From positions 64,001-128,000 of the IMG/VR virus record IMGVR_UViG_3300014697_000001: a DNA stretch of 64,000 nucleotides; one strand, given 5' to 3'. Position 1 is the first letter of the stretch. Each line of letters opens with the position of its first letter. Of this stretch, positions 2,958 through 5,254 are shown one piece after another. The notes below the pieces were generated by a model, which worked only from the letters and a program-made list of their open reading frames with translations, was not told where the DNA came from and searched no databases. The DNA is from a virus (Duplodnaviria > Caudoviricetes). The position numbers and the translations under genes are program-made.

Positions 2958-4034
2958 ATGAGCCAGCATCAAGAACTGAAGCAGTACAACCGCACCAAGC
3001 GCGATGAGATGACTTTCGGCGTGTTGCCCGAGTACGTCCCCGCCAACCTGGTCGGTGAAGATGGTATCGGTGCCCGTATGTACGACTCCAATGAGATCCA
3101 CAATCTCATGATGGAAATGGATGCAGGTTTTGTCGGCATGCGTCGCAGCCTGATCGACAAACTGGAGAACGTCCAGCAACTGATCCTCTACACCGTGGCC
3201 GGTCAGATTGACAAACACGGCGTGCTGCGTTTCGCCACCTATCAGCGTGCCGCTGGTGCCGATGCTCGTCTTAAAGACGGTTTCTCCATCGGCTTCGGTG
3301 GTCATGTGGAAATCCCAGATCTCTTCGGTCAGTACAACATCACGCCCAATGGCGAATACGTTGAAATCGCCGAAGTGCCGTCGAGCTTCTATTCCACCCT
3401 TCGTTCAGGTATTCGCGAGCTGCAAGAGGAGGTGGTATTCTTTACGGCGGGTGATGTGGAGACCCCGTACAGCGAAAAAGAGATGCTGACAAACCTGGCG
3501 CGTGGCTTTGGTCTGGACGTCGAACTGGAACACATCGAGGTCGATGGCGAATTCACGGCTGAATTGCGTGAAGGTGCCATGGTGGTCACACCGCCTGCCG
3601 TTATCTCCCGCGATGCCGAAGCAGGCAAAGCATACATCTACACCATCCGTGAAGGCGCTACCCTGGCCGAAGTGTATGGGATGTTCACCGGCCAAGAACC
3701 GATCAATAAGGTTGAACCGCTGGATCTGGGTGCCAACGTGGTCCCCTTTGGCTTCGTCTGTGACCGCGACATGAGCAAGCCTGGATTCGTGGGCAATACC
3801 CATCTGGGCGTGCTGGCAATGTTCCGGGTAGATGCTAACGTCGACTTCAAGGTCCTTGAAGACAAGTACACCACGATTGGTTGGAAGACCAAGGATGAGC
3901 TGCGTGAGATGAAGGCACGCTGTGAGCCCTGGACCCAGTACGTGATCGAGCATCTGGATGCCATGGAAGCTCGTCTGATCGAAGATTGCAAGATCGATGC
4001 GCGTACCCAAGAGCTGGAAGCTAACTTTCAGTAA
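2958..4034 (+). CDS. Nudix-family phosphoesterase (COG4112-like)
   Basis: QLILY, YQR, D-ARL...SIGFGGHVE, GIRELQEEV Nudix box, VGNTHLGV, EPWT motifs. Confidence 0.8.
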   Translation: MSQHQELKQYNRTKRDEMTFGVLPEYVPANLVGEDGIGARMYDSNEIHNLMMEMDAGFVGMRRSLIDKLENVQQLILYTVAGQIDKHGVLRFATYQRAAGADARLKDGFSIGFGGHVEIPDLFGQYNITPNGEYVEIAEVPSSFYSTLRSGIRELQEEVVFFTAGDVETPYSEKEMLTNLARGFGLDVELEHIEVDGEFTAELREGAMVVTPPAVISRDAEAGKAYIYTIREGATLAEVYGMFTGQEPINKVEPLDLGANVVPFGFVCDRDMSKPGFVGNTHLGVLAMFRVDANVDFKVLEDKYTTIGWKTKDELREMKARCEPWTQYVIEHLDAMEARLIEDCKIDARTQELEANFQ

Positions 4035-4077
4035 TCTAAGTACTTGAAGTAGTTAGTTTTTACTGGCTAGATTATCT

Positions 4078-4925
4078 ATATGTAGTAGCACTGTGACAGC
4101 ATTTAAGGAATTGAATGTTTCTGACACTCTCGCCATTACTGTCGATGTTTAGACCAGGTGCTCTGTGGCTGGCTCAACGGGTGATGAAGGCCTTACCGCC
4201 CACTTATCACTCGTTGGACCGCGGTCATAGAAGTCCTCGGGTCAAGGCAAGAGACGGTTTCTCGCAGATGGCGCGCACCTCATGCCGTTGGAGCATGGTA
4301 GGGTGGCGACCAGAACGCACCTTGAACTTAACTGACAGGATCTGGGCACTGTCCAAATGCCCCACTAAAAATTCCCTCCAAGGAGGACGATATCGTCACA
4401 CGCGGACCAGTCTTGGTATTGGTCTTCTTACTAGGACACTTGATGGGATATTCCGGCCAGATAACAGCCGGATGGTTTTCCAGTGAGCAACACTTTAGTG
4501 CACCAAACAACTCATTCTATCTCGAGACCCCGGCCATTGTGCTGGTTAAGGCAGTATTACCATACTACCATGAGATTGAACTGTACGTTGGAATTGATCG
4601 CGGTGAAGCTCCAAGTAAAGTAGTAAGTGGGCAGGTATTGAAGACGGCTCGATCTGTCGAATTGCACGGGTACTGTGGGTCCCGTAAGCATTTCTAGGTC
4701 GAGTAGCATAATTGGGCTACCACCACACTCCTCACCGATTAAGTTCGGCCATTGATGATCAGCGGATCATCCAAGTCCTACCACCCGTAGGCACCGGTAG
4801 CAAAGGTTACGGAGAAGACGGCAATGTACACAGCTCAGGTAGCCCCTGAGTGGAACCTGAGCGTTCCTTCAATTGTGGTACACCCGAGCTTCTCCAATAC
4901 TTTCCTTTATTTTTTTGTTTTCTGT
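4078..4925 (+). ncRNA. candidate large structured ncRNA (about 840 nt)
   Basis: No credible CDS; many stems with G-U pairs on + strand (4175-4187/4204-4216, 4754-4760/4765-4771, 4811-4817/4889-4895); TATGT start and T-rich end. Confidence 0.65.
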
Positions 4926-4960
4926 AATTGTGTGTCTCTTTTCTATCGAGTGCACTCACC

Positions 4961-5254
4961 ATGATGGTTTCTGTTTCTCCTGCTAATCGAGTGGCGCCCG
5001 GTCACCTCGACAACCGTGAACGCTGGGTGGCTGCCCGCGTAACCGCCTCCCACCTCAACACCTTCTTGAAGCTGATCAAGAACGCCGATCCTGAGATGTA
5101 CAGTGGTGATGAATTTGAATCGGCCAAGCACCTGATGACCCACTTCCAATCCGCCTGCGGTGTATTTATCGACGCTCTACATACCGCAACCAGTGTCGAC
5201 CAACTCATTGAGATCAACGATGAGTTCTACAAAATGGCCTGCGCCAAGTCCTGA
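4961..5254 (+). CDS. hypothetical protein
   Basis: 97-aa ORF followed by hairpin 5258-5290. Confidence 0.7.
   Translation: MMVSVSPANRVAPGHLDNRERWVAARVTASHLNTFLKLIKNADPEMYSGDEFESAKHLMTHFQSACGVFIDALHTATSVDQLIEINDEFYKMACAKS

Follow-up and report, generated by a model that had tools for sequence, protein, structure and literature searches.

A conserved, base-paired unit of phiKZ-related jumbo phages keeps two small reading frames open

We analyzed a unit of about 0.84 kb within a 64,000-nt stretch of jumbo-phage DNA (the window), which comprises bases 64001 to 128000 of the 250.5-kb IMG/VR virus record IMGVR_UViG_3300014697_000001. The original prediction for this place, made from the letters alone, was a giant structured noncoding RNA in a region without a credible coding sequence. 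Our results uphold a discrete, conserved, base-paired unit. They contradict the absence of coding sequence: two open reading frames (ORF-A and ORF-B), each preceded by a Shine-Dalgarno (SD) sequence, are conserved within it. Selection keeps both frames readable by ribosomes, yet most of the constraint lies on RNA pairing. Because two small frames are kept open, the unit is probably not noncoding, and this part of the prediction is weakened, although not refuted. On balance, we lean toward one translated RNA of ∼835 nt in which nucleotide structure would be the main selected feature and would perhaps gate an exported microprotein initiated at AUC.

Results

Both frames stay open in every homologous unit tested

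In total, 18 homologous units were gathered in four ways. Searches that started from the flanking protein, from conserved core words, and from the head protein led to related phage records of 160 to 277 kb. A DNA search of these records found the complete unit in 3 and only its first 30 nt in 5 more distant ones, including Pseudomonas phage pPa_SNUABM_DT01 (DT01). A protein search with ORF-B added four contigs from other assemblies, and five more units came from scanning metagenomes for the 5′ motif; a first metagenome scan that used a core 20-mer as the query had returned 0 matches. The units fall into group A (window, L038, L002, L005, L040, L036/L041, and L042) and group B (DT01, L053, L031, L032, L049, L033/L034/L054, L050, and L051). 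All 18 share one layout (5′ motif, first SD, ORF-A, second SD, ATC, ORF-B, 3′ domain, and T-run), with 830 to 890 nt from motif to T-run. Groups A and B can be aligned in a few islands: the 5′ motif, one hairpin, the CUCUAAGGAG box, and the 3′ end. Stops and indels in the frames were scored in 13 units, and the ATC and the T-run were inspected in all 18. The frames and their SD sequences are placed in the window as follows.

4105 to 4109, plus strand: first SD sequence (AAGGA), 5 nt ahead of the ORF-A AUG at 4115
4115 to 4486, plus strand: ORF-A, a leader-like frame of 123 codons in the window
4380 to 4386, plus strand: second SD sequence (AAGGAGG), 5 nt ahead of the AUC; an upstream CCUCC can pair with it
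4392 to 4697, plus strand: ORF-B, 101 codons, with first codon AUC 4392 and stop TAG 4695 to 4697

ORF-A was open in all 13 units, and the other five frames carried 0 to 6 stops. ORF-B had no stops in 13 of 13 units versus 0 to 8 in the other five frames, and five more units were open from the ATC. No indels were found in ORF-B of group A; those of group B measured 3, 3, 3, 6, and 24 nt in an unconstrained nucleotide alignment. The ORF-A frame shifts between lineages relative to a conserved hairpin, and a second, compensating indel restores it. AAGGA is followed by 5 nt and ATG in 10 of 13 units and by 8 nt and TTG in the other 3. Ahead of ORF-B, an SD sequence lies 4 to 8 nt from the ATC in 18 of 18 units (AAGGAGG or a weaker GGAG type in group A, CUCUAAGGAG in group B).

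The length of ORF-A in the window is unusual, since the remaining 12 tested units have 64 to 77 codons. In the window, the usual stop (TGA, 4333 to 4335) is bypassed through the loss of 1 nt near 4318. Compared with the near-twin L038 (L038:2375-2395), this deletion creates a 95-nt overlap of ORF-A with ORF-B, and it could reflect either recent mutation or faulty assembly. The usual stop lies 40 to 67 nt upstream of ORF-B and, in most of group A, at a pseudoknot. In the annotation of DT01, ORF-A is included as PA10_00292. We ruled out that ORF-A and ORF-B are joined by programmed frameshift or readthrough: ORF-B stands at +0, +1, or +2 depending on the homolog, with intervening stops, and because the frame relation varies there is no conserved fusion.

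The first codon of ORF-B is ATC in all 18 units and never AUG, GUG, or UUG; no canonical start was found behind the SD sequence, the codon at the right spacing being ATC each time. In L053, an in-frame TAG stands immediately ahead of this ATC, and L002 has ATT in place of the internal ATG that gene callers use. When other AUC starts behind an SD sequence were sought across the genome, the results were too noisy for use. Across units, ORF-B spans 98 to 117 codons. Its N terminus is hydrophobic in the window (IVTRGPVLVLVFLLGHL...). By eye, all group-B N termini begin with basic residues, continue with a hydrophobic core, and close with an AxA-type motif (IRSLRGAAALALLSLSVALSAQA and IKTLSVATMAMLTLLVATVANA are examples) despite their divergence, and these N termini, from DT01-like phages, look like signal peptides. 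Group-A proteins have a hydrophobic segment without a clear cleavage motif. Pfam and PHROGs assigned no family to either frame. A profile search with the ORF-B alignment against 1.84 billion representatives returned only its own cluster, and word-index protein searches returned only members of the clade.

Base pairs covary along the unit

Covariation was counted in seven group-A sequences, using alignments A6 (5′ part), A7 (ORF-B part), and A5 (3′ domain). Pairs changed on both sides numbered 34 in the 5′ part versus 21.0 ± 2.8 in shuffled controls (0/500), 17 in the ORF-B part versus 8.3 ± 1.8, and 19 in the 3′ domain versus 10.4 ± 2.1; since the set holds only seven related sequences, these shuffle counts are not probabilities. 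Sliding the 3′ partners gave 6 to 15, 1 to 8, and 3 to 5 such pairs, respectively. A stricter measure, which counts further pair types, was significant in the 5′ part only (70 versus 55.5). Compensatory change of the kind expected from a structured RNA is present in all three parts, above both shuffled and slid controls, and it affects most of the hairpins named in the original prediction.

The complementary segments on which that prediction was built are all present where it placed them. The paired segments 4163-4171/4222-4230 and 4175-4187/4204-4216, with their G-U pairs, appear in minimum free energy (MFE) folds, as do the 3′ hairpins, including GATGATC/GATCATC. The segments TCAAGG (4242) and CCTTGA (4320) also exist, and their pairing is missing from the consensus fold. 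The claim that G-U pairs work only on the plus strand held for the 5′ part (G-U to A-C counts of 59:25) and the ORF-B part (117:14), where RNAalifold energies also favored the plus strand over the minus strand (−108.7 versus −95.0 and −157.7 versus −132.4); neither measure settled the strand of the 3′ domain. Folding energy relative to dinucleotide shuffles gave a mixed picture. The 3′ domain scored z = −2.95 (0/200 shuffles as good) and the 5′ part z = −1.75 (9/200 as good), and the ORF-B part ranged from z = −0.3 in the window to z = −3.0 in L031. For the whole unit, the value was unexceptional on the plus strand (z = −1.47) and was −4.0 on the minus strand (20 shuffles each).

Known RNA families did not account for these structures. 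Rfam 15 gave 0 matches at the gathering threshold across the whole window. At E ≤ 10, positions 3950 to 5050 gave three chance-level matches of 12 to 13 bits against thresholds of 40 to 45. The original prediction had been unable to match the unit to GOLLD or ROOL, and this covariance-model search agrees. ARAGORN found no transfer RNA and no transfer-messenger RNA. The individual elements are listed below.

4163 to 4230, plus strand: long irregular 5′ hairpin, present in the MFE fold; in A6 helices 5 to 8, 14 of 25 pairs are changed on both sides
4277 to 4310, plus strand: hairpin conserved in both groups, with the stem CAUGC 4282-4286 / GCAUG 4293-4297
4333 to 4362, plus strand: H-type pseudoknot between the usual ORF-A stop and the second SD (S1, 4333-4337/4349-4353; S2, 4343-4347/4358-4362)
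4393 to 4442, plus strand: 5′ strand of a long-range helix, covering the ORF-B start region and the codons of the hydrophobic segment
4612 to 4660, plus strand: 3′ strand of that helix (A7 columns 22-71 pair with columns 241-289)
4550 to 4569, plus strand: hairpin inside ORF-B (GCAGUAU UACC AUACUAC); in A7 helix 12, 6 of 8 pairs are changed on both sides
4698 to 4909, plus strand: structured 3′ untranslated domain with hairpins at 4703-4720, 4736-4749, 4754-4771, and 4778-4791
4811 to 4895, plus strand: terminal three-way domain closed by GGAGAAG/CUUCUCC and holding CUCAGG/CCUGAG and GGAAC/GUUCC

The two strands of the long-range helix are the most conserved blocks of the unit. In L036, two adjacent pairs of this helix are doubly compensated (U-A to C-G and C-G to U-A), and most other changes retain pairing. 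Closure of the ORF-B start by the 3′ part of ORF-B itself was predicted, with 24 to 28 pairs, in 6 of 6 sequences from both groups; shuffled sequences gave 5 to 9 (0 to 3 of 30 as high). In the hairpin at 4550 to 4569, compensation costs amino acid changes (V to T and YY to CR).

The stem at 4282 to 4297 covaries through CAUGC/GCAUG, CACGG/CCGUG, CACGU/ACGUG, CACGC/GCGUG, and CACCC/GGGUG. In most homologs its loop is UAAGG, after which comes GGUGGCGACC. The sequence UAAGG is complementary to the 3′ end of 16S ribosomal RNA. Hairpins with UAAGG loops occur within both frames, far from usable starts (window, 4286 to 4292; L032, about 2070 to 2090; and the 3′ end of ORF-B in group B), and could be ribosome standby sites or protein-binding sites. 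Inspection by eye ruled out that such a hairpin serves a hidden frame for ribosome binding, as the spacing is too short and the downstream frame is unconserved.

The pseudoknot has a common geometry and position (loops of 3 to 5, 0, and 4 nt) in four lineages with differing sequences: GACAG/CUGUC + GGGCA/UGCCC; AGGCAU/AUGCCU + GGGCC/GGCCC; AGGCAU/AUGCCU + GGGGC/GCCCC; and AGACG/CGUCU + AGGGCG/UGCCCU. Any knot of this kind arises in 6 to 18% of shuffles. In the 3′ domain, the segment GCUAC(C) at 4716 to 4721 can pair either with an upstream GUAGC, forming the hairpin at 4703 to 4720, or with a downstream GGUAGC at 4796 to 4801, forming a four-way junction. In L036, a change in this middle strand is accompanied by matching changes in the two partners, a hint of alternative conformations, two in number.

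Nucleotides appear to carry most of the constraint

Synonymous divergence in ORF-B was 0.10 to 0.31, compared with 0.54 to 0.85 in the flanking genes, i.e., 3 to 5 times lower. Thus, synonymous sites of ORF-B are constrained. Among the three frames, the lowest ratio of nonsynonymous to synonymous change (pN/pS) always fell in the ORF frame, by a small margin; for ORF-A it was 0.32 to 0.74. Variation is mostly flat over the codon positions, with one exception: between the window and L038, variable columns in ORF-A number 6/7/17 and pN/pS is 0.32.

The ends of the unit

The unit is bounded by a conserved start element and a T-run, both of which the original prediction had placed correctly (TATG at 4079 to 4082 and the T-run at 4910 to 4916).

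4056 to 4063, plus strand: A/T-rich element ending in TAC (GTTTTTAC), 19 nt upstream of G4082
4079 to 4098, plus strand: TATG and the near-invariant first 17 nt of the RNA (GUAGUAGCACUGUGACA), with G4082 as the predicted +1
4910 to 4916, plus strand: T-run, the presumed transcript end, with a T-run in 18/18 units

TATG is kept in 18 of 18 units, and TATG with the next 16 nt is identical in 16, the variants being L038 and L042; this sequence is single copy in the 250-kb genome. The upstream element is GTTTTTAC in group A and AAATAAATAC in group B, at a fixed distance from TATG. In phage phiKZ, the late-promoter core is TATG with G as +1, and middle promoters have AAanTTACc near −24 (PMC4666361). 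The 5′ end of the unit has the sequence of a phiKZ-type promoter with a putative transcription start at G4082, and GTTTTTAC resembles the middle-promoter motif, at about −24, and may act as one. Taken together with the T-run, this points to an RNA from G4082 to ∼4916. The segment AAAGG at 4802 to 4806 can pair, by eye, with CCUUU at 4905 to 4909, forming an outer helix that abuts the T-run. A scan for the intrinsic-terminator consensus did not call the site because the stem before the T-run is branched, and a scan for sigma-70 promoters and terminators gave only chance-level sites. Since both are single copy in the genome, we ruled out the 5′ motif as a general promoter of the phage and the 3′ domain as its general terminator.

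The unit is an accessory element in a variable slot

The record that holds the window has a CheckV completeness of 94%. Jumbo-phage families were matched by its major head protein, by its replicative helicase, and by further genes. Among cultured phages, DT01 stands nearest, with 53% amino acid identity in the gene upstream of the unit. DT01 encodes both the virion and the nonvirion RNA polymerases of the phiKZ type (PMC8541153). We regard the unit as accessory and its carriers as a small clade of Pseudomonas-type jumbo phages related to phiKZ, with DT01 among them. A DNA search of cultured phages with the window, in near and distant modes, gave no match, and the same search with the DT01 unit found DT01 itself only. 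JPTI55, a DT01-like phage on Pseudomonas fluorescens SBW25 (PMC12595487), may also carry the unit.

The unit lies within the interval 4035 to 4960, between plus-strand genes at 2958 to 4034 and 4961 to 5254. The upstream gene matches phrog_8902, and its homolog in DT01 is annotated with a domain of an uncharacterised Nudix hydrolase subfamily; that neighborhood of DT01 also encodes an AAA ATPase and a protease of the HslV-like type. In L002 (7079-8656), L040 (594-2096), and L041 (204-2095), one to three extra genes stand between the Nudix-like gene and the unit, including an ORF of ∼390 to 426 residues with a weak AAA ATPase match and one of 95 residues. The window is without them, and the locus is therefore a variable cargo slot.

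Nucleotide identity between the window and L002 is 88% in the unit versus 75% in the flanking genes, and with L005 it is 82% versus 67%. The unit is also mosaic: in its flanks and 5′ half, L038 nearly matches the window letter for letter, but the ORF-B protein of L038 is just 75% identical. L003 (complete, 254 kb) lacks the unit and has a different small ORF (ATG 7167) at its place. This ORF extends into a terminal 3′ domain with T-run, a nearly identical copy of the one in L002 (L003:7085-7400); thus, the 3′ domain is separable from the rest of the unit. Two further complete relatives gave no convincing match to the unit in the DNA search.

Discussion

The reading we favor can be laid out as a sequence of steps. 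A phage RNA polymerase would start at TATG. ORF-A, with a normal SD sequence and AUG and a peptide nearly free to drift, would serve as a leader, and the ribosomes translating it would open the 5′ domain. The ORF-B start would normally be closed, because its SD sequence is partly paired, its AUC is weak, and its first ∼50 nt are paired with nt ∼220 to 270. The product, a small protein that evolves fast and has a signal or anchor segment at its N terminus, would then be made only at a low level, keeping pace with ORF-A translation. Finally, the branched 3′ domain would end the RNA and probably stabilize it.

Several observations weigh against this reading. Some concern the frames as proteins. 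Variable columns in ORF-B are spread evenly over the codon positions (35/33/39 in group A and 67/65/71 in group B), compared with 59/36/95 and 94/68/215 in neighboring genes. The pN/pS of the frames is ∼0.6 to 0.9 (0.63 for ORF-B in group A), and in the comparison with flanking genes it was 0.63 to 0.75 versus 0.29 to 0.35. Codon-usage log-odds are 0.11 for ORF-B, and ORF-A scores −0.16, like noncoding sequence; true genes of 55 to 358 codons score 0.33 to 0.74, and the untranslated 3′ domain scores 0.14. Where peptide motifs are best conserved, they fall on UAAGG-loop hairpins of the RNA. The ESM atlas held no usable match, and the language-model recognition score was low; AlphaFold on seven ORF-B sequences gave a mean predicted local distance difference test score of 40. 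hhalign detected no similarity between the ORF-B proteins of groups A and B. AUC is, moreover, a very poor start codon in Escherichia coli.

Other points against it concern the RNA. The ORF-B region of the window folds no better than shuffles (z = −0.3). The pseudoknot is missing in L042 and in group B. Pairing between the 5′ leader and the start of ORF-B (A6 helix 1) is unsupported: it does not vary in group A apart from L042, where it is broken, and group B, which lacks it, could not form it. Because the unit is mosaic, some of the high nucleotide identity may come from phage-phage recombination. Coupling of ORF-B to ORF-A and the role of the 5′ motif are, finally, steps that we infer. For the frames at 4115 to 4486 and 4413 to 4697, which the original prediction had not credited, the outcome is divided: open frames are kept in every homolog tested, the second from AUC 4392, and protein-level conservation is weak given the pN/pS of 0.6 to 0.9, the lack of codon periodicity, and the dissimilar ORF-B proteins of the subgroups.

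A bolder form of the idea is that the unit represents a new phage RNA class of ∼0.84 kb with an obligatory AUC, transcribed by phiKZ-type polymerases in DT01-like jumbo phages and gated by translation, in which the fold is the product and the frames are open only since ribosome passage serves the RNA. We regard this form as tentative and rather doubtful.

Two ordinary small, fast-evolving accessory genes followed by a terminator, with the identity due to recent cassette exchange and the hairpins incidental or acting as local translation or stability elements, are an unlikely explanation, although one with several facts in its favor. Public assemblies already contain gene calls for both frames, and DT01 ORF-A has its annotation. 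The mosaic, accessory nature of the unit fits as well, with the window-like 5′ half and the 75% identical ORF-B of L038, absence from two to three complete relatives, and the other small ORF of L003, and a pN/pS of 0.6 to 0.9 fits relaxed or diversifying selection. However, exchange alone does not explain compensatory changes, some of which cost amino acid changes. It also leaves unexplained the common long-range closure in subgroups of unrelated sequence, synonymous divergence capped near 0.3 while the flanks reach 0.85, the invariant AUC in 18 units, and the conserved 17-nt 5′ end (16 of 18 identical).

We give somewhat less credence still to a pure large structured noncoding RNA, in which the fold is the product (a scaffold, decoy, or sponge, for example) and the frames are untranslated or their translation is irrelevant. 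The covariation in all three parts, the flat codon-position variation with constrained synonymous sites, codon usage that is not gene-like, the low AlphaFold and language-model scores, the missing canonical start of ORF-B, and the coincidence of conserved peptide motifs with hairpins all agree with it, and with no Rfam match it would be a new family. It is weakened because, without selection on translation, one would not expect two frames free of stops in 13 of 13 units across strongly diverged lineages (other frames, 0 to 8), ORF-B indels that are all multiples of three, compensated frameshifts in ORF-A, correctly spaced SD sequences ahead of both frames, or N termini that resemble signal peptides.

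A type I toxin-antitoxin-like or lysis-timing module, with a membrane-active ORF-B silenced by fold-back, a mok-like ORF-A, and release of translation by antisense RNA or processing, would suit the hydrophobic ORF-B N terminus, the upstream leader frame, the start region buried in long-range pairing, and the very weak start codon, but it is improbable: ORF-B has ∼100 codons (98 to 117 across units, whereas hok-like toxins have fewer than ∼60 residues, a single transmembrane helix, and a cis-antisense RNA) and, in group B, a cleavable-looking signal peptide rather than the build of a short transmembrane toxin, the two frames overlap in the window only, through the 1-nt deletion, neither an antisense promoter nor an antisense RNA was identified (no systematic search was made), and Pfam and PHROGs gave no match (PADLOC and toxin libraries were not searched).

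Our preferred reading, a translated RNA selected chiefly for its structure, bears on a small field, as large structured phage RNAs are few and their functions mostly unknown. The mix seen here is unusual: frames are kept open while nucleotides, not amino acids, bear most of the constraint, and the AUC has never been improved in 18 units. If the mechanism holds, the unit would offer a clear example from nature of non-AUG translation gated by structure, in a jumbo phage with its own polymerases. The reading is testable because a cultured phage, DT01 (on Pseudomonas aeruginosa), carries the unit. More generally, “gene-free, hairpin-rich” stretches picked by eye can hide small frames without canonical starts.

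Comparison with known systems

The unit shares with GOLLD and ROOL a size class of 0.6 to 0.9 kb, a phage location, many covarying helices, and the lack of a known function. It differs in that no Rfam model matches it above chance level even at E ≤ 10. To our knowledge, GOLLD and ROOL have not been described as having two SD-preceded open frames, as this unit does.

At its 5′ end, the unit resembles phiKZ promoters in the TATG, which in phiKZ belongs to promoters of the nonvirion RNA polymerase, and in the A/T-rich element ending in TAC ∼20 nt upstream. In phiKZ late promoters, no conserved sequence was detected downstream of TATG (PMC4666361), whereas the 17 nt after +1 are conserved in the unit (16 of 18) and unique in the genome.

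As in the hok/mok/sok mRNA, long-range pairing closes the start region of a small hydrophobic protein, and translation of this protein may depend on an upstream leader frame. Unlike in hok/mok/sok, ORF-B is twice as long, looks exported, and does not overlap ORF-A, and there is no sequence or family match. The dual-function RNAs SgrS/SgrT, RNAIII/hld, and SR1/SR1P likewise combine conserved structure with a small peptide and with nucleotide constraint on coding positions; these are bacterial base-pairing regulators of 0.2 to 0.5 kb with known targets, and the unit has two frames. Two further parallels concern initiation. In the long-distance control of MS2 coat/replicase, in an ssRNA phage, translating one frame opens the paired start of the next, a coupling that we propose for ORF-A and ORF-B, and at the infC AUU start, as at the ORF-B AUC, a noncanonical AUN codon is kept by selection for low or regulated expression. 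In contrast to both, the unit is found in a DNA jumbo phage, and its start is AUC rather than AUU.

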